64,000 nucleotides of DNA from an uncultured Verrucomicrobiae bacterium (GTDB lineage: Bacteria > Verrucomicrobiota > Verrucomicrobiia > Chthoniobacterales > Chthoniobacteraceae): contig CAWIKF010000002.1 of the NCBI GenBank assembly GCA_963836755.1, positions 1,216,001 through 1,280,000 of the forward strand. The letters are read 5' to 3'. Below, piece by piece: positions 33,956 through 59,692 of this stretch. Positions within the stretch are counted from its first letter, which is position 1, and each line of letters opens with the position of its first letter. The notes beneath the pieces were generated by a model, which worked only from the letters and a program-made list of their open reading frames with translations, was not told the DNA's origin and made no database searches. Position numbers and translations under genes: made by a program.

Positions 33956-34096
33956 AGAGGGTCCGCGGTGGCGGAAAACTCGATATCTTACCTTCTCGGC
34001 TCCTTTTTTCATTCGCTGGCCTTTGCTGGCATACCTTTAGCTATGTTTCCCCGCGCTGCCCAGTAAGGGCGGTTTTAAGAAAGGAGATTTAAAGAT

Positions 34097-41588: not shown

Positions 41589-41678
41589 GAAATTACTTAT
41601 AATAAGCGACTTGTCGGTTAACAACTGTGATTAAAAAAGACTCTTGTAACCCATTTTTGTAACCTGTAGGTTGGGTGT

Positions 41679-42779: not shown

Positions 42780-43594
42780 GCAAGCGTTCCGATCCAATAA
42801 AACCAGGTGGGCCAGCGACATCAAATCACGATGAACTGGAAAACATTGTAAAACGCTTCAACCAGTATTTCCAGCAGGACCGGGCGTGGCCACCTCCGAA
42901 ACAGCTCCGTCAACTTTTCGAACTAATTCCGCTATTATACATCGAGACGGGACGCAAGACCATTTCTCACGTCAGGTTTTGGAACATGGTAAAAGCGGTG
43001 GATAAGCGTTGGGAAGGACTGCACCTGTGCGAATCGATTATTGGCCTGGTGGAGAGGTTCGTCAACGTCATCGCCCCTGGCCCATGTGTGCCTGCAGCGG
43101 TAGCATTGATAACACGCGGAAAAAGCCCGGTGAGGCAGAAGAAAACCGATCCGTTCACACTGCCTGATCTGCTTGCGATGACGACCGTAACGAAAAGTTT
43201 TCTGGCAAAAGAGAACATTCGGCTGACAGATTTCGTAGGCGAGCTTGACAAGCACACGTCGGCCGATTTCAAGAGCTGGATCAACCGCGCGGCAGGCGCA
43301 TTAGGAACGCCCGAGGATATTGCCTGGCTAAAGTTTGAAAACGTGCACGCAACGGTACTGAAATGGCGCGTTGACAACGAAGCTGGCTTCAGCGCGTTCG
43401 TAAGCTGGGTTTATCATCTCCGAAACGACGACCTGACGGAACTGCTGAAGAAGGTTAGTTACCCATCGGGGTGGCTTCCCACCGTGGCTGACTTGAAAAA
43501 AGCCGAGGCCAAAGCAAAGCAACGAGCAAAAACCAAAAAATTTCGGGCGAAGTCGCCAAAATCGGTTACGGCCGTCACAGAGGCGGGTGGGTAA
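42776..43594 (+). CDS. Hypothetical protein of the integrative element
   Basis: 272-aa ORF overlapping the integrase stop (GTGA); basic C-terminus. Confidence 0.7.
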   Translation: MSKRSDPIKPGGPATSNHDELENIVKRFNQYFQQDRAWPPPKQLRQLFELIPLLYIETGRKTISHVRFWNMVKAVDKRWEGLHLCESIIGLVERFVNVIAPGPCVPAAVALITRGKSPVRQKKTDPFTLPDLLAMTTVTKSFLAKENIRLTDFVGELDKHTSADFKSWINRAAGALGTPEDIAWLKFENVHATVLKWRVDNEAGFSAFVSWVYHLRNDDLTELLKKVSYPSGWLPTVADLKKAEAKAKQRAKTKKFRAKSPKSVTAVTEAGG

Positions 43595-43675: not shown

Positions 43676-45703
43676 GTGAAAAACGAGAACAAACAGAACC
43701 ACGCGCGCGCAACCGCCGCCGAGTGGCCTGACCAAAAAATTGCGGCAAAAGATACGCATCTTGCGAACGAAGATACCCAGAACAACTTCAAAGACCCCGT
43801 CCGGGACGTCCGGGAATTAGTCGGTGAGCAGGCAGTGCTCATCCCAATTCCAGTCGGCCAAAAAGGTCCAAAAATTCCGGATTGGCAAAAGATAACCCTA
43901 AAACAGAGCAAAGAGCCTGAGCATGAGCAACAGCTTCGCGCCGGGAATAACATCGGCGTGCTTCTCGGTAAGCCCTCAGGGGGGCTTTGCGCCATTGATA
44001 TCGACGACGACGAAGCTCTCGCACCATTTCTTGATTTAAATCCAGATTTAAAGGGCACGCTCCGCACCCATGGTGCACGTGGTGCCCAGATCTGGATGAA
44101 GATCGGCGGAGATTTTCCAGCCTTGGGAAAAATTAAAACAAAAGCAGGTTCCGAATGGGGTGAATGGCGCGCAGATGGCGGCCAATCGGTCATCTACGGC
44201 ACTCATCCGACAGGAGTTCAGTACCAGATCGTGCAGAAGGCGATCCCTCTGGTAAAGGAATTCGGGGCAATCAAATGGCCCGATGATCTCAACTTGCCTT
44301 GGGTGAAAACCGAATACGATCTCTTGGTCGAAGAAGAAGGTGAGCCATTTTTGGAGTCGGAGAACGGCACCATCAAGGCGCTTAACCACATGTTTTTTGT
44401 GGAGAAATACGTGCGTGAGCACGTCGTGCTCTACGATTCCGCGTTGAAGGAATTCTTCAGCTACGATCCAGCCGATGGATTGTGGAAACGAACCACCACG
44501 GAGTCTGCCAAAAAACAGATTTTAAATGACTTCAAGAAAGCTTCAAAGGAGTTCGGCGCGCGCCAGTTGCTGGCAAAGCGCAACGACTCCTTCGGCAACG
44601 CTCTGGTCAACCTCCTCAAGGCCCACTGTGAGCGTTTCGAGGCGTTCGGGGCCAAGCATTCCTATATTCACGTGAAAAACGGAATACTACAGTTGAACTC
44701 CACGCCTCCACGCATGGAAGAGTTCAGCCCCGAGTTTTACTCCAGGAACCTCTGTCCGTTCAATTATGAACCTGATGCGAAGTGCGAGCAATTTCTCAAC
44801 GAATTGCTCAAGCCTGCCCTTGGCGACGAGGATATTGATTTGCTCCAGCGTTGGGCCGGGTCCGTGCTCATCGGGCAAAATCCCGCCCAACGGATCTTGC
44901 TCGTCGTCGGCACCGCCGGAGGCGGCAAAAGTACCGTCATGAGTGTGATCGAATTGGTCATTGGGCTCAACAATGTGGCCCAGCTGCGCACCGAGCATTT
45001 GGCGGATCGTTTCGAATTGTTCCGATTCGACGGCAAAACTTTGCTCACGGGCAAGGACGTGGCTCCCACGTTCCTCATGCGCAAGGGTGCCCATGTGTTG
45101 AAGTCACTGGTGGGCGACGACGTGTTCGATGCTGAAAAGAAGGGTGCCAATGAACGCATCCAGCTTCGCGGCAATTATAACGTAGCGATCACATGTAATA
45201 CCCAGCTGAAGGTGTTGTTGGAAGGTGACGCCGGAGCCTGGAAGCGCCGACTTCTCATCCTCCACTATGAAAAACCAAAACCAAAAATCCCTATCGCTGA
45301 TTTTGCACACAAGCTCATTCGTGAAGAGGGGGCTGGCATTTTGACGTGGATGGTCGCTGGTGCCCAACGATACATGGAAGAGATTGAAAATCATGGCGGC
45401 CTACAATTAACCAAGCAGCAGCAGGCCCGCATCGATGCGTTGCTCTCGGAGAGCGACAGCATCCGCAGCTTCGTGGAATTTATGGTGGTTCCGGCTGAAG
45501 GCGAAACAGTCACTTCCAAGGAGTTGTTAAATGGATACGTCAACTACTGCACCTCTCACGAATGGGAAGGTTATCCCGAAAAAGAGGTCGAGCGTAAGCT
45601 TCCAACTCTTATGTACGAGATTCATAAGGTGAAGCAGAGCCACGACGTAAATCGACTTGGAACAGCTCATCGTGGCTACAAGGGCTTTACCCTCGCGAAA
45701 TAA
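43676..45703 (+). CDS. Bifunctional primase-polymerase N-terminal domain plus D5/P4-family SF3 helicase
   Basis: KGPKIPDWQ, NIGVLLG, AIDID, GQSVIYGTHPTG; Walker A GTAGGGKST; AWKRRLLIL. Confidence 0.88.
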   Translation: MKNENKQNHARATAAEWPDQKIAAKDTHLANEDTQNNFKDPVRDVRELVGEQAVLIPIPVGQKGPKIPDWQKITLKQSKEPEHEQQLRAGNNIGVLLGKPSGGLCAIDIDDDEALAPFLDLNPDLKGTLRTHGARGAQIWMKIGGDFPALGKIKTKAGSEWGEWRADGGQSVIYGTHPTGVQYQIVQKAIPLVKEFGAIKWPDDLNLPWVKTEYDLLVEEEGEPFLESENGTIKALNHMFFVEKYVREHVVLYDSALKEFFSYDPADGLWKRTTTESAKKQILNDFKKASKEFGARQLLAKRNDSFGNALVNLLKAHCERFEAFGAKHSYIHVKNGILQLNSTPPRMEEFSPEFYSRNLCPFNYEPDAKCEQFLNELLKPALGDEDIDLLQRWAGSVLIGQNPAQRILLVVGTAGGGKSTVMSVIELVIGLNNVAQLRTEHLADRFELFRFDGKTLLTGKDVAPTFLMRKGAHVLKSLVGDDVFDAEKKGANERIQLRGNYNVAITCNTQLKVLLEGDAGAWKRRLLILHYEKPKPKIPIADFAHKLIREEGAGILTWMVAGAQRYMEEIENHGGLQLTKQQQARIDALLSESDSIRSFVEFMVVPAEGETVTSKELLNGYVNYCTSHEWEGYPEKEVERKLPTLMYEIHKVKQSHDVNRLGTAHRGYKGFTLAK

Positions 45704-45984: not shown

Positions 45985-46100
45985 CCGGACGGCCCGGACG
46001 GGGTCATCGGACTCAATTTGAAAGTTGAGATGAGTTTTATATAGCCTTTCAAGGATTCAGAATTTTCAAATGACTTTAAATGTGCCGTCCGGTGCGTCCG
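45985..46100. repeat. Inverted CGGACG repeat element, copy A (candidate origin)
   Basis: CGGACG-N3-CGGACG, ~85-bp AT-rich spacer, CGTCCG-N3-CGTCCG. Confidence 0.75.
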
Positions 46101-46374
46101 TAGCAGAGGGTAAATACTCGTAGAGTTTGCTATCGCCCCAATTTCATAAAATCCCAATGGAGGTCGGGTTTTATTCAAAAAATGCCTAAATTTCGCGCCC
46201 GGAGCGTTTTTATAAAACCTCTTTGCCTCTCTTGCTGGGCTAATTTGCCGATGATTACCACCGTGTGCGCTCCAACCTCGACAAACTGTGAATTCTTGGG
46301 ACAACCAGCCGTGCGGATGAATAAGCCTTTCTGCTGAGACAAACTGCACGTCTTGCGAGGATAGCCACCCATAA

Positions 46375-47454
46375 ATGTTCACCATTCAGCGCGACGCCCT
46401 TACATTTACCTTCCCGGAAATCGCCGGGCAGGTGCGCTCGCTTGTCGAGCGCAAGATTGAAGAATTCGCTTCTGCGCTCCCTCCTCGTTCCGAGCGAAAC
46501 AAGCTCATAGAGGAAATTGAATCCAACGAGCGATTCAGCAAACTAAGCCTTTCGCAAAGGGAACGCGCGAGCGCGATGTTGCGCACATGGACGCCTGAGG
46601 ACGTGGCAGCGGGTTTGCGGAGAACGATACTGGAACTCGGCGGCTTGAACACGGATGCGTTCACTGAGTTGACCGTCAAATTCCAGCGCACCATGCGAAT
46701 TCCAGACGGCGGCCAGACCTATTCCCTAGCGACGAATTTAGGCCAGCTTCCACTTCGCTCCGTGGATGCTTGTTCCAAGACCGCGCTGCCTTCGTGGATC
46801 AAGAAGGAGAGCGTTGTCCTGCCCTTGCACCGCAGCGAGGCACTCTGGCTTTGGTTCTCCTCGCGCTATCGCTTCGCGGTAAAAATCGGCGTCGGGAAGC
46901 TCGATGCGTTGACTGGCGAACCTTGGAACTCAACCCTGCACCGGCAACCGCAAAACTATCTCGTGGTTCCCGAGCCGTGGTGGAGTGAGAGCGATGAAGT
47001 CCTTTGGCACTATCTCGCGCTGCCGCTCGGCGTTGGCGACAGCGCGATTCGCTTGCAGGTCACTCCGATGTCCGCTGAATCCTATTATGACAACGAATTT
47101 TTGATCCGCACGCCGCGATCGATCCACGAGTTTTTCTCCAGCATTATCTTTGGAGGAATGATTCTCGCGCAGATGGAGCCGGGCCAACGCGAGCACGAGC
47201 GGTTCGAACTGGAATTCATGGAAGACAAGATACAGGCCGCGCTCTATCAATCCGTTCCTCAGAAAATTCCGGAGGACTCCTATGACTTCACGGCAAGGGG
47301 TCAAACGCAAAACGTCCACGGCATCGTTCACCCTTGCGATTCATCGGCTTGGAGACAAATCACCGGTACGAACCCGCCTCATCCGCCACTGACAGCCGAT
47401 GACTACCGGCAGGCAGGCATTCCGTGGGTTGAGAGCTACCGTGCAAGTGTGTGA
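46375..47454 (+). CDS. Conserved hypothetical protein
   Basis: 359 aa; FQRTMRIPDGG, SEALWLWF, TGTNPPHPPLTADDYRQAGIPW look family-like. Confidence 0.65.
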   Translation: MFTIQRDALTFTFPEIAGQVRSLVERKIEEFASALPPRSERNKLIEEIESNERFSKLSLSQRERASAMLRTWTPEDVAAGLRRTILELGGLNTDAFTELTVKFQRTMRIPDGGQTYSLATNLGQLPLRSVDACSKTALPSWIKKESVVLPLHRSEALWLWFSSRYRFAVKIGVGKLDALTGEPWNSTLHRQPQNYLVVPEPWWSESDEVLWHYLALPLGVGDSAIRLQVTPMSAESYYDNEFLIRTPRSIHEFFSSIIFGGMILAQMEPGQREHERFELEFMEDKIQAALYQSVPQKIPEDSYDFTARGQTQNVHGIVHPCDSSAWRQITGTNPPHPPLTADDYRQAGIPWVESYRASV

Positions 47455-47601
47455 ATAGAATGATTCGAACGACGAATCGCGTGCGTAAACGAAATGAATC
47501 GGATTCAAACAGACGTCGCCGAGGAAATTGTTGCAAGATGAAGCTTGGACAAAGCATCTCCCTCAACACGACGTTTTCGTGCGCAAAAAAGTAAGGCATT
47601 T

Positions 47602-48462
47602 ATGATTACACAAAACTCACAGACGAGAGATTTAACGAGCATGGATAACATTGACGCCAATAAAATTCAGCCGATGCCCAAGGAGATTCATGAGCGACTA
47701 AACGAACATGGGGTCTATTTCAAAAAACGTGTGCTTCACGAACTGCGAAGCTATCAAGGTCTATCTATCGCGGGCGAGGAGGTCGGCGAATCATTCGGTA
47801 AAACCCGCGTGGCTGACATCCTCGCGTTCGACAAACGGAGCGACAGCCACACCCTCTACTTTGTAATTGAGTGCAAACGTGTCGCGAGTGAAAAGGTTTG
47901 GATTTTCTTTCGCGATATCGACAATACTTACAGAGCTTCTCGCGTGTCTAACATCGCCGGTCCATCAAGCGTCGTGCAAACTAGCGATCGGCTGCAGCTA
48001 GAACCTCCTGTATGCTCCGAAGGATATGAGTATCCAGTTGGCAGAAACAAAGTTGCCGACCAAGATCCCATTTTTCAGGCTGCAAGTCAGTTGTCAGGAG
48101 CTTTCTTAGGCTTTATAGCGCGGAGACAACGGATATGGCAACCCAACGCAGTAGAGCGTTTCGTCCCTCTTTTGGTGACGACGGCCAAATTATTCGCGGT
48201 AAATCAATCCGATCTTTCCAAGACGGATCTTCTATCTGGAAAGCTGAACTCAAGACCGCATTGCCTTGAGACTCCATTTGTTATTCTTAAACATCCTTTC
48301 CCGACACCGGAAGGCTTGGCCAAGGATTTTCGCGACGAGATCCAAGGAGAATCGTGGACTGCCATGCATCGCGAGACCATTTATGTCATAGGTGCCAGTG
48401 GCCTAAGAGAGTTCTTTGAGATTAGTCACCGCGATTTCCTTCACGACGCACGTAATGAATAG
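47602..48462 (+). CDS. Putative PD-(D/E)XK nuclease-fold protein
   Basis: ADILAF...FVIECKR motif; start uncertain. Confidence 0.6.
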   Translation: MITQNSQTRDLTSMDNIDANKIQPMPKEIHERLNEHGVYFKKRVLHELRSYQGLSIAGEEVGESFGKTRVADILAFDKRSDSHTLYFVIECKRVASEKVWIFFRDIDNTYRASRVSNIAGPSSVVQTSDRLQLEPPVCSEGYEYPVGRNKVADQDPIFQAASQLSGAFLGFIARRQRIWQPNAVERFVPLLVTTAKLFAVNQSDLSKTDLLSGKLNSRPHCLETPFVILKHPFPTPEGLAKDFRDEIQGESWTAMHRETIYVIGASGLREFFEISHRDFLHDARNE

Positions 48463-48477
48463 ACTTCGATTGTTGCT

Positions 48478-49291
48478 ATGGAACCGGATCAAGAGCATTC
48501 TCTAGTTCTCAGACAGTCGCACGAGTTGATCGCGCTTGCATCTGCACCGAATCGTATCTTGTGCGAGATGGTAGCAAGTTCACTCGTGCTCGCAAAAGAG
48601 ACTGCCCCCCCTAATGTCGATCTCGACGCGCTTGTGCGTGAAGGAAAGCAAATCCAGGGAGGCAAAGGAATGACACCGGGAAATGTTCAGGCATTCAAGC
48701 TGTTTCACCAAGCTGCATGTGCCGGACACCCGGAGGCCCAGTTTCTTCTTTCCCAATACCATCTGTTCGAGATGGGGATTAAACTCGAAAAGGCTGAGTA
48801 TGAATACTGGTTGCAAAAATCTGCTGAGTCGGGCTTTGCACCAGCGCAAAACCGTTTTGGTTTTGAAACGAGCGCGCGAGACCATGTTGAAGCCGTTAAG
48901 TGGTATAGAATGGCTGCTGAACAGAATTATGCCAAAGGTCAACTCAATCTTGGTGACAGTTATCGTTATGGCTATGGAGTAGAGGAAGATTTGATCGAGG
49001 CTGTAAAGTGGTATCGAAAGGCAGCCGAACAGGGTAATGCTTGGTCACAATTCCTCTTGGGGGATTGCTATAAGGAAGGCGTAGGTGTTCCAAAAGATCA
49101 GGGTGAAGCCGTGAGGTGGTGGACAAAATCGGCGGAACAAGGTGAGGATAGGGCGCAAGCTGATCTTGGCGATTGTTATGCTTACGGTAACGGTGTGCCA
49201 CTAGACCTTGAGAAAGCTGTGAGTTGGTGGAGAAAGGCTGCGGAACAAGGAGCTAGTCAGGTTTATTACAAAGTCGGCAATTCATATTCTA
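48478..49291 (+). pseudogene. Sel1-repeat protein truncated at its 3' end
   Basis: Repeated AVKWYRKAAEQG..AQ..LG..Y..G.GV; character changes abruptly near 49291 and the frame runs on to 49656. Confidence 0.75.
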
Positions 49292-49819
49292 TCGGCTGCG
49301 GCGATGGCCGCGAAGAAGGCATTGACCGGCGAGGAAGAAGCCGAGCTGGCGGCGCTGTGGAAGCGGCTGGTGAAGCTGTATCATCCCGACCGTTTTGCGA
49401 ACGAGCCGGACAAGCTGGCGACCTACGGCAAGCTGACCGCCGCGATCAACCGGGCGAAGGACAGCGGCGACCTCGACACGTTGCGGCAGATTGCCAGCGA
49501 TCCGCACGGGTTCATTTTGCGGCAAGGCTGGGCGAGCCTCGATTTCCGCGACGAGGAGCAGGTGAGCCGGCTGCGGAAGCTGTGGGAGAGTTTGGAACTG
49601 GAAATCGTCATCGTGATCGAGGCGACGAGCCGGCTGCGCGAGAGCGCGGAGTTTGAATTGCACGCGCTGGTCGAGAAGAAGTCGGAGATGTTTGAAAGCG
49701 TGGTGGCGAAGCAGACCGAAAGACTGGACACAGAAATCGCGAAGCTGAGAGGCGAGGCGGCGGAACTGGCGAAGGAGATCGAGACGGTGGCCGGCCACCC
49801 AGCGGCGGACTTTCACTGA
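49292..49819 (+). pseudogene. J-domain (DnaJ-like) coiled-coil protein, 5'-truncated
   Basis: WKRLVKLYHPDRF, AINRAKD; GC-rich; abuts the Sel1 fragment. Confidence 0.65.
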
Positions 49820-49954
49820 CCACTACACGCACTCATATCATTCTCGGCTGGTTTTTCACCACGCTCTGGTTCAGCGCGATTTCAGGACTGATGAAGGGAT
49901 GAATAGACTGGCGCCACTCCTGCTGGCCCGGAGATGGAGATATGGATTCGCCTG

Positions 49955-50075
49955 CGGACGCCCCGGACGCCTGTTTTTGAGTCTGGTTGAAAAGTGGATC
50001 TAGCATAGACTTCTTTGAATGTCACTGGACTCCCAAGGAGTTGAATATAGCCGTCCGCAGCGTCCGTAACGTCCG
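49955..50075. repeat. Inverted CGGACG repeat element, copy B
   Basis: CGGACG-CCC-CGGACG, ~82-bp spacer, CGTCCG-CAG-CGTCCG-TAA-CGTCCG. Confidence 0.75.
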
Positions 50076-50140
50076 TGCACGGCCGATTGGAACGATCAAG
50101 CGATGGAGGAGGCGGCGATAGAATTTGTACTCAAGGTCGA

Positions 50141-50182
50141 CAAAACAAAGAAGGACGACGTGTGGCGTCGTCCTATCTTTTG
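50141..50182 (-). terminator. Intrinsic terminator downstream of vapD
   Basis: Minus strand AGGACGACG-ccaca-CGTCGTCCT then TCTTTGTTTT. Confidence 0.7.
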
Positions 50183-50220
50183 CTGCCCCTGAAATCATTA
50201 AGAGGGCAATTTTAGAAGTG

Positions 50221-50538
50221 TTAAGCTGCTTCTTTCAGCAAGTCGGTTACATTTCCCCAATCTTCGATTCGAACGACGAGGAAACGCTTTACATATCGAC
50301 AAAACCTGGGGGCAAGTTTAACCAGTTTGGCTGGTAACCGCATAATGGTCTCGAAGGAATGCTCGTTATCCTCGGTCGAATACATCGAGTGTTGAAGGTG
50401 CTTCTTCAACCCACAGGCTTCCAAAGCCTTTGGTAGCTCACGTTGATAAATGGAATTTCGCTGACTTTCATCAAGTCCTTCTCTTTCCATGAGCTTTGTA
50501 TCAAGATCAAAGCATATTGCATATTGTGGCATTTTCAT
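50221..50538 (-). CDS. vapD: VapD family (Cas2-like fold) nuclease
   Basis: YAICFDLDT, QHSMY, VVRIEDWGNVTDLL; RBS AAAGGAG. Confidence 0.8.
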   Translation of the reverse strand: MKMPQYAICFDLDTKLMEREGLDESQRNSIYQRELPKALEACGLKKHLQHSMYSTEDNEHSFETIMRLPAKLVKLAPRFCRYVKRFLVVRIEDWGNVTDLLKEAA

Positions 50539-51103
50539 TAGGTCTCCTTTCTAACTCCCGATTAATATCGGGATCTTAGAAGACTATCAAAAATGACGTG
50601 CAACTACAAGCTTAAACTTCATAAGTCTTAAGGTTTTTTTACTCGCAGTAGGAAATGAAGTTTCCTATACTAAGAGTTACGTGCAATGGGTAGGCTTCTC
50701 ACAATAGCGAAAACCGAAATCGTCGGTGCGATTTTAACGGAAACTCAATGTACTATGTCACAGTTCCAAATCTGCCGAGCTTTCAAAGTACCGACATTCA
50801 ATGCGCAACACTCCGGAGCAAAAGGCAAAGCGATGGAAAAGTCGGGAGAAATTACCGTTGCGCAATTTTTATAAAGTTGCTTGAAGTTCCGCGAGCCCCG
50901 ATTAAGAAAATCCGGCCTCCCCGAGCCTCGGCGCCACCCATTATAGAATCGCGAAAAAGTCCCATACCTCCGCCGGAATTTAGCTTGACCACCGCGGCCG
51001 CATTCCATAACACCGCGGCATGACGGCGTGGAAACTACCAGGTGCGGCAACCAAAATACAACCAGAAACAGGCGAAACTTTTTTCGCCTTATATTACGAA
51101 CTT

Positions 51104-51123
51104 TCGTCTAATTCTCGTTAGGT
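51104..51123 (+). other. attI-like integron recombination site
   Basis: GTCTAAT-TCTC-GTTAGGT simple site at the head of the array, without an upstream attC arm. Confidence 0.55.
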
Positions 51124-51131
51124 CTTTCTCC

Positions 51132-51461
51132 ATGTCGCGCTTAGAGGACACCATGAACTTTCTTACAGATCAAGAGTGGGGCTGGTGCCCGTTTCTCTTC
51201 CTCCGGCCGCGCAAGGATCAGGACATAGACAACGCCGTCCTTCTAAAGATGGCGTGTTGCTTCGGTCCTGTCGCAGGCTTGGTTGCGTTGTTGCCCCTGT
51301 TCCTGTTTCGCCATGGCGTCACTGCTCGCGAAGTGATCTTGTGTCTCGTCGGCGCTTCGATTCTATTCTTTTTAGCCTACAAGTGGACCTTCGCTATCTT
51401 CTGGAATCGCCGCGCCGAGCGGCTTCGCTCATCGAACGCGCAGCCCGCCTCGGAGACCTAA
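51132..51461 (+). CDS. Cassette 1: small membrane protein
   Basis: Two hydrophobic segments; TAA stop lies in the attC R'' site. Confidence 0.75.
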   Translation: MSRLEDTMNFLTDQEWGWCPFLFLRPRKDQDIDNAVLLKMACCFGPVAGLVALLPLFLFRHGVTAREVILCLVGASILFFLAYKWTFAIFWNRRAERLRSSNAQPASET

Positions 51462-51578
51462 CCAGGCGATGCAGCGAACCGCTGGCCGCTCCGCGTTTTA
51501 GCTTGCGATGACTTCCACATTCAACCTGCAGCCACACGCGGCCTCGCCAGCGGTCGCTGATCTTGTGTCTCGTTAGGC
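51456..51578 (+). repeat. attC site (long type)
   Basis: ACCTAACCAGGCGATGCAGCGAACCGCTGG...CCAGCGGTCGCTGATCTTGTGTCTCGTTAGGC. Confidence 0.9.
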
Positions 51579-51580
51579 GC

Positions 51581-52030
51581 ATGAGAACGCACCGCGTAAT
51601 TCACGGTTTGGCGATTCTGTCGCTCATAGTCGTCGCTGCCATGAGCGTCATCGGCAGCCTGCGTCAGTTTCCCGGAGCACCGCCCGAGATGAGATTCGCG
51701 CCACTCGTCGGCCTCGCTATTTGGTCGTTCCTGCTCTGGAAGATTTGGCGACGTCCTCGCAAATGGGGTCTCGGAGTCGGCATCTTCCTCTTTCTGATGA
51801 TCGCCTTCCAGAGCTACCTTTGGTGGCTTGGCGTCAACAATCCCAAGCTAGAGGCACAGATACCAGAAGCCAGCCGAAGCGTTGCCAACTTCATTCTGAT
51901 TTATGAGCTTCCGATCTTCGTTGCTGGTGTGTGCTGCATTTTGCTACGCTTTTCCAATCCACATGAGTCCTTTGACCACGCAGCGAAATGCGCCCGACCC
52001 TGCGATGCAGCTAACAGGCTCCGCCTGTAG
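51581..52030 (+). CDS. Cassette 2: four-helix membrane protein, reads into attC
   Basis: Hydrophobic ORF; in-frame CGA where the R'' TAA is expected. Confidence 0.75.
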   Translation: MRTHRVIHGLAILSLIVVAAMSVIGSLRQFPGAPPEMRFAPLVGLAIWSFLLWKIWRRPRKWGLGVGIFLFLMIAFQSYLWWLGVNNPKLEAQIPEASRSVANFILIYELPIFVAGVCCILLRFSNPHESFDHAAKCARPCDAANRLRL

Positions 52031-52051
52031 CTGATCTTGTTCTCGTTAGGG
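51992..52051 (+). repeat. attC site (60-bp type, R'' mutated)
   Basis: GCCCGACCCTGCGATGCAGCTAACAGGCTCCGCCTGTAGCTGATCTTGTTCTCGTTAGGG. Confidence 0.85.
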
Positions 52052-52059
52052 CCAAAACC

Positions 52060-52272
52060 ATGAAACCAAAAACGAAAGCAACAATATTACTGGCAATAGG
52101 ACTAGCTCTACAAAATGCAGGCATCATAACTGTTCCGCTGCATCTGTCGCAAAATGTGAAAACAGTTTTGATCTTGATAAGCATACCATTTTTTATATGG
52201 AGCATAGTGTTGTTTACCCGCAAGAAGCCCACGCCCGAGAACAAATCAATCCCACTAGAAATACCAAAATGA
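52060..52272 (+). CDS. Cassette 3: small two-helix membrane protein
   Basis: 70-aa hydrophobic ORF starting just after the core site. Confidence 0.7.
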   Translation: MKPKTKATILLAIGLALQNAGIITVPLHLSQNVKTVLILISIPFFIWSIVLFTRKKPTPENKSIPLEIPK

Positions 52273-52291
52273 AGCGATGTGATTTAAATAG

Positions 52292-52351
52292 CCCTAACCA
52301 AGCGATGCAGCTAACAGGCTCCGCCTGTAGCTGATCTTGTTCTCGTTAGAC
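52292..52351 (+). repeat. attC site (60-bp type)
   Basis: CCCTAACCAAGCGATGCAGCTAACAGGCTCCGCCTGTAGCTGATCTTGTTCTCGTTAGAC. Confidence 0.9.
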
Positions 52352-52355
52352 GAGT

Positions 52356-52595
52356 ATGCGACGCGAAGACGAAAGTCACATTGTAGCCGATGGCCAGTCG
52401 CGCATCGTCGCTGGTTATGCTGCTCGGCTCCGCGCCCGTTTGCTTCGGCGCGCGGCTCCGCTACTTGAGCGTGGCAATCCCCTGCAGCGGATGGCGATTC
52501 GCTATCGGATGTCTCGTTTTGTTCGCGCTCAGATTCGCCGCCGGCGTCGAAAGTTGGCTCCGTTCGAAGCACTGTATGCATTGCCTAGTCAGTAG
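52356..52595 (+). CDS. Cassette 4: small Arg-rich hypothetical protein
   Basis: ATG immediately after the core site; ends before the next attC. Confidence 0.55.
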   Translation: MRREDESHIVADGQSRIVAGYAARLRARLLRRAAPLLERGNPLQRMAIRYRMSRFVRAQIRRRRRKLAPFEALYALPSQ

Positions 52596-52634
52596 CCGCT
52601 TGTTTCGGGAGTTTCACGTGAGGCCACGCCAAAC

Positions 52635-52757
52635 GTCTAACCATGCGATGGAGCCAACCACTGGCCGGCGTACGCGCAAGTTTTCCGTGAGTCCAACCCC
52701 ACATCCCGCCGCCACGCGCGCTCTCGCCAGTGGTGGCTGATCTTGTTCTCGTTAGGC
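52635..52757 (+). repeat. attC site (long type)
   Basis: GTCTAACCATGCGATGGAGCCAACCACTGG...CCAGTGGTGGCTGATCTTGTTCTCGTTAGGC. Confidence 0.9.
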
Positions 52758-52774
52758 TCCTTCCGCGCACTTCG

Positions 52775-53311
52775 ATGAAAGGCATTCAAGAACTCACCCT
52801 GAGAGTGTGCGTGACCGCCCTTTTCCTGTTTCCGGCGTTGTCTTTCGCTTATGCCCGCCCCAGACCAATCGCTGCTCGAATCATCAATATCCGTGGAGAG
52901 ACTCAACCCGAAGATGCAGTCGGCAATGTTGAGGTTACGCTCTCAAACCACCGCAAAGAGATATGGACTCGTAGCTGGCATTGCGAGCTTGCTAAAGTCT
53001 CCAAGACTAGGCTGGTAGGTTGGACTTACGCATCGGGCCAGCATACACGCGGCCCGTGGATGAACGATGAGTTGTGCATCGCGAACAGCAGGCACGACGT
53101 AACCCACTTTTCTGTTGATCGTGCGTTTATTGACCTTTGGGATTTTACCGATCACGATACTTGCGTCGTAATACGTTCACGGAACATTCATGGTCCTTCG
53201 TGGCTCGAGAAGTTTCGGATCGACACCGGCCAGTTCATCGATGAGTGTTCGGGCAGCAACTATCCTGAGAAGACCCCAGAATGGGCAAGACCATATCTCG
53301 ATGAACAATAG
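52775..53311 (+). CDS. Cassette 5: secreted hypothetical protein
   Basis: Signal peptide-like N-terminus; bounded by complementary core sites. Confidence 0.75.
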   Translation: MKGIQELTLRVCVTALFLFPALSFAYARPRPIAARIINIRGETQPEDAVGNVEVTLSNHRKEIWTRSWHCELAKVSKTRLVGWTYASGQHTRGPWMNDELCIANSRHDVTHFSVDRAFIDLWDFTDHDTCVVIRSRNIHGPSWLEKFRIDTGQFIDECSGSNYPEKTPEWARPYLDEQ

Positions 53312-53317
53312 CCAGGA

Positions 53318-53377
53318 GCCTAACCATGTGATGCAGCTAACAGACTCCACCTGTAGCTAATCTTTTTCTTGTTAGAT
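53318..53377 (+). repeat. attC site (60-bp type, diverged)
   Basis: GCCTAACCATGTGATGCAGCTAACAGACTCCACCTGTAGCTAATCTTTTTCTTGTTAGAT. Confidence 0.85.
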
Positions 53378-53490
53378 GCAGAATACGAGTATGAACGAAG
53401 TTGCTAAACCACCGTCAGCGCACCGGTGCTGCTTTTGATTTACCGCGTTAATTCTTGACTTCGCACCGTCGTGATTTCAAAATCAACATT

Positions 53491-53850
53491 ATGAAACGCT
53501 CCCTCCTTACAACACTCGCTCTTCTTCCATGTTTTGCGTTAGCCGCGACAAGTCCCACCTCCATACCCCCTGATGTAGCTCATGAGCTTTCGGTGATGAC
53601 GACCAAGCTGAAGCTGAGTGAGAGTCAGCAAGACAGGATCAGGCCGATACTTGTGGCGGAATTTAACAAGAAGCAAGCGATAGAGAACAGCACGCTCAGC
53701 GACAGGCAGAAACATGATCAGGTTGGGTCGAATCACAGGGCGGCGTTGCAAAAGATTAAGGCATTGTTTACGCCCGAACAACTGGCGCTGATAGAAGAGG
53801 ATCAGAATCATCCATCTACAAGTTCGACAAGGCCGAAATCGAGAGATTAG
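53491..53850 (+). CDS. Secreted Spy/CpxP-like (LTXXQ-type) helical protein
   Basis: Signal peptide, LKLSESQQDRI, IKALFTPEQ; no attC follows. Confidence 0.65.
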   Translation: MKRSLLTTLALLPCFALAATSPTSIPPDVAHELSVMTTKLKLSESQQDRIRPILVAEFNKKQAIENSTLSDRQKHDQVGSNHRAALQKIKALFTPEQLALIEEDQNHPSTSSTRPKSRD

Positions 53851-54098
53851 TTAATGAAAACAAAACATATTGGGTGAGTTGTTGCGGCTGCCTATTGCGC
53901 TACGCGGCGGATGCGCTTGCATTCTATCATGTTTTCCAGAGCCAATCGACTGATCAATCATACCGGTTTATTCTTTCAAGGATTTGTCCTTTGCCTCAGT
54001 TTCCTGTCGCAATGCAATCGCTGCTAGTTGGGCTAAGTCTAGCGATAGGAGGCAGAGACTTTAGGGGAGGAGAGGGGCGATTGTCGCCGCTTTAAACA

Positions 54099-54211
54099 CG
54101 GACGCCACGTACACCATTTAGAGACTCACTTTGGGGATATCGAACGATGACGCGCTGCTCTTTCCTCTCAGAATCCTGAATTGAGTGCAACACTGCCGTC
54201 CGCAGCGTCCG
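54099..54211. repeat. Inverted CGGACG repeat element, copy C
   Basis: CGGACG-CCA-CGTACA (degenerate), spacer, CGTCCG-CAG-CGTCCG; spacer aligns by eye with copy D. Confidence 0.75.
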
Positions 54212-54239
54212 CGATTACCTTTCCTAGGGCATTGTCCTT

Positions 54240-54464
54240 GTGCTGGCACTTCTCGCGGGCGTGCTCGGCTCTTGGTCTTTCCAGAGTATTCGTCCCTTCG
54301 ACTTTTACCACGAAGCCGATGGTGGTATGCCGGGATGGGAGCCCGTTATGATGTATTCTAAAACTACGATCCAGTGTTGTATCATTGCACTTGTTTCGGT
54401 ATTCGGCAGCGCACTTGCGTGCTACTTTATTACTCGACATGCTGAACCCCGCACAACGGACTAA
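54240..54464 (+). pseudogene. 5'-truncated cassette membrane protein
   Basis: Hydrophobic ORF ending in attC R''; begins just after repeat copy C. Confidence 0.5.
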
Positions 54465-54520
54465 CCATGCTATGCAAGTAAATCGATCCCGCCTGTAGCT
54501 GAGCTTGTATCTCCTTAGGC
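54459..54520 (+). repeat. attC site (60-bp type, degenerate; CTTAGGC core)
   Basis: GACTAACCATGCTATGC...CGCCTGTAGCTGAGCTTGTATCTCCTTAGGC. Confidence 0.75.
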
Positions 54521-54534
54521 TGTTGCACTATACC

Positions 54535-54954
54535 ATGAAACCTATTTTTCTCTTCAGCCTGCTCCCACTCATTTGCGCTGCCGCGTTGCCGCAGCAGGAC
54601 TTTATTGGTTCACGCATCACTGAGTTTGAACGTGTCTCTTACGATTTCCAACTTACGAAAACGGCTCTGCAGAAAGCACCTGTATGGAGCCCGGAAGCTC
54701 CATTTCCTCCGCTATCGCCTAGGAAAGCGCAGGAGATCGCTACGGCGCAGCTCCAAGAGTTGCTTCCCGATCAGCATCGGTGGATGCGCATTTCTAGGAT
54801 CACGCTGGAGGAGCTTGACGGTTCGCATTGGATTTACCTAGTGACATTTGATTATGTTCCGCCGACTCCGTATTCAGGACCAGCTCGGTTGTTCACGATT
54901 CCAGTTTATCTCGACGGTTTCATCATAACACCGCACATTCGCAAGCAAACATAA
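54535..54954 (+). CDS. Cassette: secreted hypothetical protein
   Basis: Signal peptide; PVWSP..PPLSPRKA..WIYLVTF..VYLDG. Confidence 0.75.
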   Translation: MKPIFLFSLLPLICAAALPQQDFIGSRITEFERVSYDFQLTKTALQKAPVWSPEAPFPPLSPRKAQEIATAQLQELLPDQHRWMRISRITLEELDGSHWIYLVTFDYVPPTPYSGPARLFTIPVYLDGFIITPHIRKQT

Positions 54955-54957
54955 TGA

Positions 54958-55018
54958 GGCTAACCATGCGATGCAGCTAAGAGGCTCCGCCTGTAGCTGC
55001 ATCTTGTTCTCGTTAGCT
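54958..55018 (+). repeat. attC site (60-bp type)
   Basis: GGCTAACCATGCGATGCAGCTAAGAGGCTCCGCCTGTAGCTGCATCTTGTTCTCGTTAGCT. Confidence 0.88.
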
Positions 55019-55035
55019 ACCCTGCACATCCAACC

Positions 55036-55353
55036 ATGAAATTCAGCCTATTCTTACCATTTGCAGCGGTCACACTCCTATGCGCCGGCTGTAACCATTC
55101 GGATCGCGACGATGATGTGTTGTTTATTGGCTACCGTTATGCCAAAGACAGCCATGCCTACGTTTCTGCCAACGCAACGAAATATATGGGCGATGGTTAT
55201 GCCACGTCGCTGAACGCCAGTCCCCATGTGAGGATTTGGGGTTCCATGTGCAGCCTGACTTGGGTCGAAACCGAGAGTGACGGGAGCAAAAGGACAAAAC
55301 ATGTCAGCTTCCCTGTATCGAACATCGACGAGATTGTTTGGAAGGGCGACTAG
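55036..55353 (+). CDS. Cassette: putative lipoprotein
   Basis: Lipobox-like LCAGC. Confidence 0.72.
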   Translation: MKFSLFLPFAAVTLLCAGCNHSDRDDDVLFIGYRYAKDSHAYVSANATKYMGDGYATSLNASPHVRIWGSMCSLTWVETESDGSKRTKHVSFPVSNIDEIVWKGD

Positions 55354-55374
55354 TTCGCTCGGCCGTATCACCCA

Positions 55375-55476
55375 GCCTAAAAGGCGCTCCAGCGAACCGA
55401 GGCTGGCGATGGGCTTTTTCTTGTATTCCAAGTCTTCTCGCGCCAGCCTCTGTCGCTGAGCTTGAGTCCGTTAGGC
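55375..55476 (+). repeat. attC site (intermediate length)
   Basis: GCCTAAAAGGCGCTCCAGCGAACCGAGGCTGGCG...CGCCAGCCTCTGTCGCTGAGCTTGAGTCCGTTAGGC. Confidence 0.85.
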
Positions 55477-55479
55477 TCC

Positions 55480-55839
55480 ATGCGCTTTTTCATCGCCATT
55501 ATAGGTTTGTTTGTTTTGTGCGGTTGCCACAGTCAAATGGCATCCGAACCACAGCGAGAGGCTGGCGCACCGTTTGGCGATATGTGGCGTCCAGATGACA
55601 GTCGGTTCACGCAGCGTGAGCACGAGATTGTCGCTTCCGCTCGTAGTTATCTCGACAAGCAACAGAAGAAGCCAGTCGATGGATATTACAAACTTGAGCA
55701 CACAAAAGATCGCTACGAGGTCTTTGTTATGTTTGCCGCTGGCCGCGAGCATGGCCGCCCGTTATTTTATCCCGGCGGTCATTGCACTGTGTTGCTCCGA
55801 GAAGATGGGAGTGTGATTCGTGTATTACCTGGAGCCTAA
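55480..55839 (+). CDS. Cassette: putative lipoprotein
   Basis: Lipobox-like LCGC; stop in R''; flanks GTTAGGCTCCA/TGGAGCCTAAC are complementary. Confidence 0.78.
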   Translation: MRFFIAIIGLFVLCGCHSQMASEPQREAGAPFGDMWRPDDSRFTQREHEIVASARSYLDKQQKKPVDGYYKLEHTKDRYEVFVMFAAGREHGRPLFYPGGHCTVLLREDGSVIRVLPGA

Positions 55840-55901
55840 CAAGTCGCTGAAGCCAACCGCAGTTGGTACTTGCAGTTCCGCTGTCGCGGTTCACGTTAGG
55901 T
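55834..55901 (+). repeat. attC site, right arm missing
   Basis: GCCTAACAAGTCGCTGAAGCCAACCGC... with no matching right arm; GTTAGGT at 55895. Confidence 0.65.
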
Positions 55902-55982
55902 GTTGCCGGCCGCTCACCAATCGACAACAACCGAAGCAAACTAGCTGATCTTCAGCAGATGCGTCTCGACAATCGCACTTCC

Positions 55983-56284
55983 ATGAAAGGTCTATCTATC
56001 GTAATCCTCCTCGCTGCTCTGACCTCGGCGCTGTTTGCCCGAAACATACAGTGGCGAACGAAAGATAAGCCACCTGTTTCCATCATTGCGGCAGTGGAGG
56101 CCGCGACCAAGGAATTGGACAAAGGAGGTGCTGATTTTTACTGCCTGGGAGTAGCATCGGAAGGAACTTCTCAGAATGCGACTGGCTGCTTACATTCTCG
56201 AACGCTGCTGGTGAGGTCCGCTGGGTTTCCGTCGGTAGCGACGGTAAGATTAGAGTCAGCAAGGAAGCATTTGAATATGATTGA
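55983..56284 (+). pseudogene. Frameshifted secreted cassette protein
   Basis: MKGLSIVILLAAL...DFYCLG continues in another frame as CDWLLTFSNAAGEVRWVSVGSDGKIRV. Confidence 0.55.
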
Positions 56285-56425
56285 CACCCAATCCCACCTC
56301 TCCCGCGAACAGCGGCTCAGAGTCAGGTCTTTCCTGTTTGGAATCCTTGACCTGGCCTGCCTCTGTCGCTGGACTTCGGTCGGTGATGCGGCATTCGGAC
56401 CCTCCAAACAAATCTGATCCCGCCG

Positions 56426-57091
56426 ATGAAGACTACGCTCAGCGTGGCGTTATTACTTTTAGTCTGCACCGGAATTGGGCAGGCGAAACTGATCGAATCC
56501 TATCGGATGGATTCGCTGGTCTTGTTCTCTGATGTCATCGTTTATTGCGACGAGGAGGATGTGAAAAGAAAGGAGATCCCGCACGAGATCACCGATTCGC
56601 GAGGTCTGGTAAAATGGACCGATACGATCACCATCACGCGATGCAAGGTGCTGCAGAGTTTTAAGGGCGATCTTGCGCCAGGTGCGGAAATCACGGTCGA
56701 ATATTACAACGTATTCTGCCGCTACTTATTCGAGAACGGGCCATACACGGTGCTGAATGCTGCGAGAGAAGTCGTTTCCGTGCATAAGGCCGAGTATTTT
56801 CCTCCGGGAAAAGTTTTGCTGTTTCTACGCAAGGATTCCGCAGCAGGTTATGGAGTCGTGGATTCAAAATTGGTGCAGGATGGAAAGGTTTACCGCTACG
56901 TCCAGATGATGAATCCCGGCCCGCTTAATCTCTGCCGGCAAGGGCCTGAGAATTTCAAGCTAGCGAAAGGCAAGCCTTACGGCGAAGAGGAACTTCTCAG
57001 GGACATGACGCTGGCCCTGAAGAAATCCGTCATGCTCAAAAGGCCGGTCCCTGAAAGCATTGATGAAACGATGAAGGCTGCGGCAGAATGA
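56426..57091 (+). CDS. Secreted hypothetical protein
   Basis: Signal peptide, 221 aa. Confidence 0.72.
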   Translation: MKTTLSVALLLLVCTGIGQAKLIESYRMDSLVLFSDVIVYCDEEDVKRKEIPHEITDSRGLVKWTDTITITRCKVLQSFKGDLAPGAEITVEYYNVFCRYLFENGPYTVLNAAREVVSVHKAEYFPPGKVLLFLRKDSAAGYGVVDSKLVQDGKVYRYVQMMNPGPLNLCRQGPENFKLAKGKPYGEEELLRDMTLALKKSVMLKRPVPESIDETMKAAAE

Positions 57092-57711
57092 GCAAGCTGA
57101 TGCAGCAAACGGCGGCGGCCCTTTTGGTTCTTCTGGCCTTTTCATCCCGACCAAGTCTGGGTGCGGAGCTCAAACTTTTCCGAGTGCGCGATAAGCCAAT
57201 GATTTCGCCAGACAATCGGCTTGGTCTTGCTACAGAATATTCAGACGGAGACGAACCCGCCGGTGACGGGCTTTGGCTGGTTCGTCTGCCTTCGATGACG
57301 CCCATCGGCAAGCCCGTTAAAACTGGGCCGTTCTTGGGGAATCGGGGAGATGCGGTGTGGAACCTGCGCGCTCACCGTGTGGCAGTCAGCGCAGGTGGTC
57401 TTCCCCAACGGGAGACCAAGGTCTTTGAGTATTCCGCTGACTCATTTCGCGCTCTCGCTCCTCTGCCGGACATGCGACAACTCGTTTCACGATATTTCTC
57501 AGGGGTAACTCGATTCGGCTATAAATTCTACGTTGATGTCAAACGCTGGCAGGACAAGAACACGCTCGAAGTGACCGTAGATGCAGACGCGACCTTCAAG
57601 GGAGGAAGCAGCGACTGGATTAGCCTCAGAGTAGTCGTGAAGCTCAATAAGGAGAAACAATGGCGAATTGTTTCTGTGATTGATCTTGCGAGTCGAGCCA
57701 GCCATGACTAA
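57088..57711 (+). CDS. Secreted hypothetical protein
   Basis: Signal peptide; ATGA overlap with the previous gene; stop within GACTAAC. Confidence 0.72.
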   Translation: MSKLMQQTAAALLVLLAFSSRPSLGAELKLFRVRDKPMISPDNRLGLATEYSDGDEPAGDGLWLVRLPSMTPIGKPVKTGPFLGNRGDAVWNLRAHRVAVSAGGLPQRETKVFEYSADSFRALAPLPDMRQLVSRYFSGVTRFGYKFYVDVKRWQDKNTLEVTVDADATFKGGSSDWISLRVVVKLNKEKQWRIVSVIDLASRASHD

Positions 57712-57740
57712 CATGGTGCCCGCGCGTCACTCCGCACACT

Positions 57741-57799
57741 CGGGACCCGGCGATGCAGCTAACATCTTCCCCCGATAGCTGATCTTGTTCTCGTTAAGT
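57741..57799 (+). repeat. attC site (60-bp type, degenerate R'')
   Basis: GCGATGCAGCTAAC...TAGCTGATCTTGTTCTCGTTAAGT. Confidence 0.75.
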
Positions 57800-57817
57800 C
57801 ACCACTACCACACCATT

Positions 57818-58834
57818 GTGCGAGCCCAAATCTTTTTCTTCTTTACTATTCTATCACTCCGGCTGCAGGCCACTCCCATACAAGACAGGCTGTCGTTGAA
57901 AACCGTTTCTGGGCAGTATGAAGCAGTGGAAGGGGTCGACGGCTATGACGCCACAGAATTTCCTACACTTCGGCTCAAAGCGTTGGATGCTGGTGACGAG
58001 CCTTTCTTCAGCCGGGTGGAAATTAGTTTTACTTGCTACTGGATTAGCCACAAGGACGCTATTCGCTTTCAAGGCGCGGGAGTTGGTTCAATTGACGAAA
58101 ATGGCGTTCTGAACTTCGCATTTGTTGATGAGGATGGGCGCCACGGAACTGGAAAGTGGCGCCGTCAGGGAACCCAATATGAACTTTCGTTGGTATGTTC
58201 AGAACACATCGAAGGATCGCAACACGAAGACATGAAGATGTTATTTGTTTACGGCGAGCCACACTTGTATTCCAAGACAAATAATGATGCGCTGCAGCGA
58301 ACGTCGTCGGCGCCTCGTGGCAAAGCTTTGACTGCCGAGCCAACGGCGAAGAAGCGGAACCGAACACCACCAGCGGGAGGCGACGTTAGCAGGCTAATTT
58401 CGCTTATCGGCAAAGATAAACGAAGAAAGGAGGTGCAGGAGTTCTTAGATGGCTTCGGCTCAACTCCAGAAGTTGACAAATTCAAGGGAGATACAAGGCC
58501 AGATGGAAGCAAAGGTTCTCCATGTGAGTATTACAGTTACAAAGATAAGGGGATTTCGATCAGAATTGCCGGGGGAGTGATTACGTCTATTTTCTTATAT
58601 TACGAAGGTGCGGATGGATTCCATCAGTATCACGGGCTGTTGCCCTATGGCCTTCGTTTCATGATGAACCGAAAAGAAATTGAAAATAAGATCGGTATAG
58701 CTTCCGATTACCTAGGGACCGAATTGAATGTTTTCGCAAGTTATCCAAAGAAGAAGATGTATCTTACATACGACTCGCCGTCGAAGACGGACATGAGCGC
58801 CCACCTTTACGAGATATGCTTGGCTGACGAATGA
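57818..58834 (+). CDS. Cassette hypothetical protein, possibly a fusion of two cassette ORFs
   Basis: Signal peptide; internal attC-like remnant near 58280. Confidence 0.65.
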   Translation: MRAQIFFFFTILSLRLQATPIQDRLSLKTVSGQYEAVEGVDGYDATEFPTLRLKALDAGDEPFFSRVEISFTCYWISHKDAIRFQGAGVGSIDENGVLNFAFVDEDGRHGTGKWRRQGTQYELSLVCSEHIEGSQHEDMKMLFVYGEPHLYSKTNNDALQRTSSAPRGKALTAEPTAKKRNRTPPAGGDVSRLISLIGKDKRRKEVQEFLDGFGSTPEVDKFKGDTRPDGSKGSPCEYYSYKDKGISIRIAGGVITSIFLYYEGADGFHQYHGLLPYGLRFMMNRKEIENKIGIASDYLGTELNVFASYPKKKMYLTYDSPSKTDMSAHLYEICLADE

Positions 58835-58892
58835 CCCCTTGCCATTGCTCCGCTACGATTTAGATGACCGCCATGACATTTCGCACCTCGTC

Positions 58893-58940
58893 GTCTAACC
58901 CTGCGATGCAGCTAAATGGCTCGGTGCGTCACGCCATGCC
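58893..58940 (+). repeat. Final attC, left arm only
   Basis: GTCTAACCCTGCGATGCAGCTAA with no right arm before repeat copy D. Confidence 0.7.
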
Positions 58941-58975
58941 AAAAAGATGATTAACCGAGTGCTAAAAGGAGAGCC

Positions 58976-59089
58976 CGGACGCCACGGACGCCATTTAGCA
59001 ACTTACTTTGGAATGTTGAACTGGCGATCCGGCTGCTCTCTCCGCTCACACTTCTAAAAGGAGTGCAAAATTGCCGTCCGTAGCGTCCG
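58976..59089. repeat. Inverted CGGACG repeat element, copy D
   Basis: CGGACG-CCA-CGGACG, ~84-bp spacer, CGTCCG-TAG-CGTCCG. Confidence 0.8.
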
Positions 59090-59692
59090 TAGAGTGAAGT
59101 AAGTCGATGAAATTTCGGCATTCTCAAAAGTTCCTTTCGGGTTGTGTTCTCTCAGCTCATCCTTCAGCTCAAGCGTGGGGAGGATCCGTGCGCAGAGTAT
59201 TCCAACCGCATGAAGGACGAACTTGACGAACCCTTTGCACTTCATGAACACTCCTATCCTGGGTTGCTCACGCTGAAGGGCTACATCACCTTGTTCTCCA
59301 TTGGCGCTCACGCTTCCGTGCGGCGCGTGAAGGTTGAATCTGCCGTTCAACGCGCCAAGGAACTAAGCATCGATTACAAGTGTGCTCCTCCGGATTTGTA
59401 TCCCGAGCGAGGCGGATTCTCCTACATCGCGAATCACGGCTGATGTTTGCGAGCATGCTAGTATCGCTCCCTGAGCGAGAGCTGATAGGAACATGCATGT
59501 GTCGTGTCTACTCGAACTGCTCTCGGCTGAGTCTAATGAGACGGTGGCGAAATCTCGGGTTATTAGAAGACTGGCACGCGGAGCTCTGGCCAGAAGACTA
59601 ACAAAGGTTTAATTTTGCGGTTTGGCGCACCATCCCAGGCTAAGCCAGCTCACCAAAGCAACGTTCTCTCGAAATCAGTAGCGGTATTCAAA

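Follow-up and report, generated by a model that had tools for sequence, protein, structure and literature searches.

How one genomic island came to hold several copies of an iteron site of the kind found at replication origins, and which of them may act as an origin, is the question raised by a 64,000-nucleotide stretch of an uncultured Verrucomicrobiae bacterium (GCA_963836755.1, contig CAWIKF010000002.1, positions 1,216,001 to 1,280,000; this whole stretch is referred to below as the window). The site consists of paired CGGACG hexamers, a spacer and inverted CGTCCG hexamers, and one copy, A, directly follows the operon of a primase-helicase, PriRep, whose island it very likely serves as the cognate replication origin. 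An original prediction had placed four such sites (A to D) in the window, taken A for the origin of the element, and proposed that the others are either origins of stacked, decayed relatives or mini-origins by which cargo is mobilised. In what follows, bare numbers are window positions, G000:C2:n denotes positions on genome contig C2, and L and G labels stand for the other loci and genomes compared. The sites are as follows.

45986..46100, no strand assigned: copy A, very likely the cognate iteron origin; two plus two perfect hexamers, spacer of 85 bp with 66% AT
49955..50075, no strand assigned: copy B, orphan; two plus two core at 49955-50066, third right hexamer to 50075, spacer of 82 bp
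54099..54211, no strand assigned: copy C, orphan; shares homology with D and F within the site but not outside it, and a 5'-truncated cassette open reading frame (ORF) comes next
58895..59195, plus strand: block of an attC stub, copy D (58976-59089) and 106 bp, common to copy F of island 2
G000:C2:1283707-1283818: copy E, full site in the same island, 3.7 kb past the window
G000:C2:390774-390883, minus strand: copy F, which has lost one left hexamer and lies in a second tRNA island
G000:C2:1299826-1299840: lone half-site near the right end of the island, behind an HTH_17 excisionase-like ORF
43798..43812, minus strand: lone half-site (CGTCCG-N3-CGTCCG on the plus strand) inside the 5' end of the primase gene

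A pattern search of the window re-located all four predicted sites in their places. The exact pattern (CGGACG-N3)x2-spacer-(CGTCCG-N3)x2 has three copies in the window (A, B and D) and no match in any of 100 dinucleotide shuffles; it misses C, whose second left hexamer reads CGTACA (two mismatches), so that the supposed conservation of the hexamers is exact for A, B and D and not for C. The conserved spacer length was borne out (A 85, B 82, C 83 and D 84 bp), and the AT content of the spacers is 52-66%, the genome as a whole having about 42%. Over all 3.18 Mb there are two full copies besides A-D, namely E and F. A half-site profile, which peaks at 16.3 on the reversed genome, finds 14 strong half-sites (score at least 19), of which 12 lie in island 1, one at F and one elsewhere. 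As had been noted earlier, the spacers of C and D align (74% identity) and those of A and B differ (51-55%); by spacer, C, D and F form one lineage (74-87% identical), and A, B and E are distinct from the other lineages (48-59% identity). The tract reported before A and C was likewise recovered: AGGGGAGG is present at two places in the window (45969 and 54063), where 0.44 occurrences would be expected.

Copy A and its primase-helicase

The genes leading to copy A follow the order integrase, ORF without assigned function, primase-helicase, Zn-finger gene and copy A, which begins 15 bp past the Zn-finger gene and 285 bp past the helicase gene, directly after the operon, as predicted.

41679..42779, plus strand: tyrosine integrase (Pfam PF00589, phrog_1)
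42776..43594, plus strand: 272-aa protein without Pfam or PHROG match
43676..45703, plus strand: PriRep primase-helicase, with Prim-Pol, D5_N, SF3 helicase and a predicted C-terminal winged helix
45704..45970, plus strand: small Zn-finger protein; many relatives likewise have it behind the primase (tblastn in primase-linked loci)

The identification of A as the origin, already put forward in the original prediction, draws strong support from comparative genomics and from the predicted structure of PriRep. Searching the genome collection for the exact pattern returned 83 stretches, and 82 loci entered the analysis. Forty-one of these pass the half-site profile (35 of them with record titles from the PVC group), and a homolog of the primase, at 32-48% identity, is present in 27 of the 41 passing loci and in none of the 41 failing ones. 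In 26 of the 27 primase-linked loci the site lies no more than about 600 bp downstream of the primase gene, and in the remaining one it lies at the 5' end; passing the profile is circular for these sites, because the profile was trained on them. When the search was started from the protein, 47 of 401 genomes of the phylum had a primase homolog, and an inward hexamer dyad was found downstream in 10 of the 29 loci fetched (five CGGACG, three CATACG and two other). With a narrower pattern, 31 loci were found in metagenomes, a primase match being present in 19; a metagenome search by primase confirmed nothing. The exact pattern had no match in 40 relatives, and a three-mismatch version gave counts mostly at chance level in 150 genomes of the family. 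Since the CGGACG motif follows the helicase across genomes, A is very likely the cognate origin.

PriRep itself is a protein of 675 aa with Prim-Pol, D5_N and DUF5906 domains (Pfam) and a TIGR01613 match above the cut-off, and its closest named homolog comes from Verrucomicrobiota. Its closest solved relative by sequence is 7OLA, which the available text of PMC9371898 describes as SaPI5 PriRep5. In a Foldseek ranking of the AlphaFold (AF2) model of PriRep, an animal-virus PrimPol comes first and 7OLA second. At its C-terminal end (about aa 595-673) the model (pLDDT 87) has three helices and a beta-hairpin, arranged as in a winged helix. Two residues of the wing are of special interest: H/N-D was found in 39 of 39 CGGACG rows and T-D in three of three CATACG rows, PriRep having H656-D657. 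The wing residue thus tracks the hexamer type and is a candidate specificity residue, a match that is only a lead because the rows are related.

In Staphylococcus aureus pathogenicity islands (SaPI) and Gram-negative phage-inducible chromosomal islands (PICI), the available text of the sources places the origin just 3' of rep, with opposed sets of iterons around an AT-rich region (PMC9371898, PMC6092414) and bound by the winged helix of the Rep protein (PMC9371898, PMC6092414, PMC7581432, bioRxiv 10.64898/2026.10.17.759575). Copy A has the same features: it lies downstream of rep, has at least two opposed iterons on each side and an AT-rich core, and is accompanied by an SF3 helicase, one of the two types (SF3 or MCM-like) expected of such an initiator, with a predicted C-terminal winged helix. 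After excision of the island, hexamers of a self-loading PriRep would bind the paired CGGACG iterons flanking A, contacting them through the C-terminal winged helix; the AT-richer spacer would then melt, and replication would be primed. We infer these steps by analogy with SaPI and PICI; what was observed is the position and architecture of the site and the predicted fold of the protein. The half-site in the 5' end of the primase gene, of which a TGTCCG version occupies the same codons in the closest primase homolog, is possibly autoregulatory.

Most relatives have a single full site within 6 kb, and extra half-sites surround many cognate origins. Some loci are arranged differently. Tandem origins, with two full sites behind one primase at a 150-bp period or 200 bp apart, occur in L177, L179, L180, L183, L199 and L110. 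L122, L123 and L126 have outward-facing CGTCCG and CGGACG pairs about 30 bp apart directly after the helicase. In L192 and L195, ORFs resembling the small and large subunits of terminase (translation read by eye) stand right behind the origin, which suggests that some members of the family are phage satellites. Finally, a phage-like contig with ERF and without a D5 primase (L048:6001-8371) has a site 87% identical to a primase-linked origin in front of an ORF without assigned function and DnaB.

Sites without a primase

The genome has one DUF5906 primase gene, and none of B-F lies immediately downstream of a rep gene. Decayed primases beside these copies were considered and rejected, a sensitive profile search of both islands being empty. 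The earlier idea that they are origins of stacked, decayed relatives thus finds no direct trace in either island here; it does find a counterpart in a related genome (G529), whose tRNA-Lys island has three helicases of the D5 family, a clamp/ligase module and several sites. Orphan sites also recur elsewhere, 11 of the 41 passing loci lacking a primase, with flanks of 2 kb or more on each side; a primase homolog was found in three of the ten genomes with a well-flanked orphan that were searched (assemblies incomplete). Three sites lie within 1.4 kb in L082; in L216 a stretch of 6 kb contains 11 half-sites, mainly between genes. G508 and G516, both of one related genus, contain eight and nine dispersed copies of one subtype found through the spacer, many of them partial. 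Among copies located in this way in related genomes, incomplete or chimeric ones are frequent, and the right box is better conserved than the spacer. The D block is absent from the 150 family genomes except for one 44-bp match.

In their state of preservation the orphans vary. C has two hexamer mismatches and F has lost one hexamer, both of which can be read as decay. The D and F blocks differ by 26 substitutions over 277 aligned bases; none of 18 hexamer positions changed, against a background of 9.4%, which is not significant (p about 0.17, calculated by hand), and F lost a whole unit, so that purifying selection on these hexamers was rejected. B-F share one orientation, direct alignment weakly favouring B and E as inverted relative to A; an orientation classifier was correct for 33 of 37 sites in leave-one-out and misclassified A.

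The predicted link between sites and cargo breakpoints stands in part, and other genomes lend some indirect support to the notion that the orphans could be mini-origins gathering cargo. Homology restricted to the site, with nothing in the 400-bp flanks, was found in three pairs: C versus D/F, L051 versus L082 (94% spacer identity) and L090 versus L048 (87%). In two further pairs continuous homology ends at the box on the primase side. A DUF433-DUF5615 toxin-antitoxin block lying between two co-oriented sites is 86% identical over 1069 bp in two genomes with different surroundings, and on one side its homology stops at the edge of a hexamer. Near the right att repeat, the half-site is joined, 23 bp in, to a recent, truncated copy of a PLD gene (98.8% identical). 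Most block ends of the island itself are distant from any site, among them the Sel1/DnaJ junction, 662 bp from the nearest one. In a low-depth DNA read run that may come from the source sample, no site had a joint and a single contig had the variants of F; the run is uninformative on circles.

The integron side of the prediction fared less well. D does lie just after a truncated attC, as do E and F, but the genome has further truncated attC left ends that lack a site. Seven of the nine attC clusters of this genome have no site within 5 kb, and a full attC match was found in one of 100 other site-bearing loci (with a pattern tuned to this genome); a general link to attC arrays, or a role as an integron recombination site, was therefore rejected. 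A 10-bp stretch of the attC stub left of D is complementary to the start of the D spacer, a match that may be due to chance. A module of nuclease, WGR ligase, clamp and DUF932 was found near sites here and in L219, L224, L288 and G529 when the search started from the site; since none of 14 loci (262 kb) found through the module had a site, this link was rejected as a rule. In one genus, orphan sites have a separate repeat of 42-70 bp at a distance of about 45 bp; it brackets cargo blocks and is possibly an element end (L082, L213, L289, L290).

Taken together, we lean towards B-F being origin-type sites of the family of A, whose own primase was lost or never carried, and mostly passive passengers in slow decay. 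Rearrangements between related islands would have put them in place. Crossovers and template switches would occur preferentially at or close to the iteron boxes, which measure 15 bp, are common to all sites and would be bound and opened by the helicase; sites would thereby move alone or with cargo. B-F are probably still able to bind PriRep, and the orphans are probably not parts of a dedicated cargo-capture machine. Several observations pull the other way. The half-site profile was trained on primase-linked sites and is to that extent circular; 19 of the 29 protein-first loci lack an inward dyad under the filter used (three of them with little downstream DNA); and most wing rows are related to one another and were identified by means of CGGACG. 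No remnants of a primase or Zn-finger gene were found in either island with profiles built from 77 primase and 26 Zn-finger homologs. Of the 13 mapped block ends of the island, 10 are over 400 bp away from the nearest site, and of the remaining three, two are part of the D block. Copies B, D and E remain fully intact with spacers only 56-58% identical, and C and D differ at 2 of 24 hexamer positions, as opposed to 26% of the spacer; this points to selection rather than to decay alone.

In a second reading the orphans are active. Recombination between two co-oriented copies would free a circle of cargo with one origin, which PriRep would amplify in trans, and re-entry at another copy would build site-gene-site arrays; reiterated origins in defective variants of SV40 offer a parallel. 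The co-orientation of B-F, the bracketed toxin-antitoxin block, the mainly intergenic half-sites of L216, the recent fusion near the right att repeat and the better-kept right box all argue for it. We nevertheless regard it as doubtful, given that a primase homolog accompanies the well-flanked orphans in so few genomes (with the incompleteness of the assemblies in mind), that the spacers of B, D and E are too divergent for efficient homologous recombination, that many copies are damaged, and that the sites are not generally linked to attC or to the clamp/ligase module. It is less probable still, and on balance unlikely, that B-E are auxiliary sites of the single PriRep (enhancers, sites for titrating copy number, or operators), comparable to the crr region of P4, or decoys for the helicase of an incoming element. 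That one island with a single primase has five full sites and two half-sites, that the closest homolog keeps the half-site within its primase gene and that half-sites flank many cognate origins would fit such a function; F, however, lies in an island without such a primase, the usual relative manages with one full site, and the number and spacing of sites vary between islands.

That the boxes are arm sites of a tyrosine recombinase or the ends of a MITE/REP family we consider highly improbable. Paired direct repeats in inverted arrangement do look arm-like, but the att ends of the island carry a different repeat, TTGTAACC, pairs of which at both ends are likely the integrase arm sites; the CGGACG boxes are therefore not needed as integrase arms, and that candidate was rejected. 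Moreover, a primase homolog is found in 27 of the 82 scanned loci, and a tblastn match to this integrase in only two. As for MITE/REP, one related genus has eight to nine dispersed copies of one subtype per assembly and some sites seem to have moved alone; yet the spacers have no shared core (48-59% identity between lineages) and no abutting target-site duplication, and 13 of the 14 strong half-sites lie inside two tRNA islands, which refutes for this genome the genome-wide scatter named in the original prediction as the alternative. The best reading of the iteron boxes is that of origin-type binding sites moving and recombining within islands.

The two islands and their other genes

The island that holds A-E measures 43 kb between its att repeats.

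41517..41588, minus strand: tRNA-Val(CAC), whose 5' half (41551-41592) is the left att repeat
41644..41664, plus strand: direct pair of TTGTAACC, recurring near the right att repeat (G000:C2:1300338)
51459..58940, plus strand: attC cassette array without integrase
G000:C2:1300488-1300529: right att repeat, 42 bp, 97.6% identical to the left copy

The second island, which holds F, is bounded by the 5' half of tRNA-Leu(TAG) and has no primase of the PriRep type; it shares with island 1 the D block, a cassette stretch and the PLD gene. Both islands duplicate the 5' half of their tRNA (41551-41592; G000:C2:368524/419631), so that the element supplies the 5' end and the promoter side. A true IntI is encoded elsewhere in the genome (C2, about 765 kb). 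In front of the cassette array, a 230-bp stretch (50891-51125) recurs in or before attC arrays at C2 about 1,471,400 and C1 about 703,500 (83-86%) and is a possible shared array leader or attI-side remnant.

Copy E, preceded by an attC stub, lies about 400 bp upstream of the nuclease/WGR-ligase/clamp/DUF932 module. This part of the island, past the window (L001:8213-14276), encodes an ORF without assigned function, a PD-(D/E)XK nuclease, a WGR-ATP ligase, an extended beta-clamp and DUF932; the WGR ligase occurs in 13 of 301 genomes of the class, often with the same neighbours. Other features of the window include a Sel1-repeat gene to which the tail of a widespread DnaJ-like gene is joined out of frame (48478-49819, junction near 49293), tandem repeats upstream of an fn3 gene (33631-33961), a gene for a large secreted protein (36398-39010), which we take to be glycoside-hydrolase-like and which has a 77% identical paralog in island 2, and a small basic protein with repeated KARWA motifs and no family match (60961-61365), presumably nucleoid-protein-like. 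The ORF at 50221-50538, which we assume to be VapD-like, has no Pfam, PHROG or NCBIfam match.

Known replicons and the meaning of the sites

Several known elements resemble this replicon in part. With P4 it shares the P4-family primase-helicase domain (TIGR01613), and P4, whose alpha protein acts with ori1 and crr, likewise has more than one iteron-bearing region per element; the extra sites here differ in being complete dyads of several lineages and not one fixed second region. No psu-, sid- or delta-like genes were found among the 12 island proteins compared with PHROGs or the island proteins scanned with Pfam, a set covering part of the island ORFs. SCCmec elements use serine recombinases. 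The Cch2 operon of SCCmec has an intergenic iteron origin downstream of a self-loading island helicase and bound by its C-terminal domain, and differs in its helicase and primase families and, in the available text, in having a single origin (PMC7581432).

The closest parallel in replication is offered by SaPI5 PriRep5 and the Gram-negative PICI, which, in the available text of the sources, combine a fused primase-SF3 helicase with a C-terminal winged helix and a site-specific integrase (PMC9371898; PMC6092414; bioRxiv 10.64898/2026.10.17.759575), and whose origin is directly downstream with at least two opposed iterons per side and an AT-richer core. The SaPI origin has, according to the same text, 6-12 iterons in about 300 bp, whereas that described here has two plus two in about 115 bp; in addition, a Zn-finger gene stands between rep and origin, five further full sites lack a rep gene, and the island measures 43 kb against the 12-15 kb given for Gram-negative PICI in the available part of PMC6092414. 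Compared with the PICI gene order, int and pri-rep are present, there is no AlpA match, and the HTH_17 ORF lies at the far end. Pfam and PHROG scans of part of the island ORFs identified no helper-phage or packaging gene. The tycheposons of Prochlorococcus, as described in the available text of bioRxiv 10.1101/2020.12.28.424599, resemble the island in their inward-facing, tRNA-targeting tyrosine integrase, adjacent replication module, variable cargo and remodelling; the island has this layout, to which the comparison was confined. They belong to a different host phylum, and that text does not mention dispersed origin copies. From its sequence, the replicon appears to work like the pri-rep-ori module of SaPI/PICI, departs from PICI in size and from P4 in gene content, and fits the tycheposon layout. 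The available text of PMC5862659 and PMC8628076 gives no origin data for the PriRep family, and literature searches, with bioRxiv supplements outside their coverage, returned no description of a CGGACG iteron or of multi-origin islands, no paper on crr and nothing usable on the SV40 parallel.

With these results a likely origin sequence is at hand for primase-helicase islands of a family widespread in PVC bacteria. Together with the candidate specificity residue in the wing, it makes binding and replication directly testable, and it may provide a replicon for these bacteria, for which few genetic tools exist. Were the orphan sites active, origins would be engines of cargo exchange in islands, and genes would accrete apart from integrons and transposons; and if circles of cargo were indeed freed and amplified between co-oriented copies, this would amount to a replication-driven cassette system independent of the integron integrase, in which origins spread selfishly.

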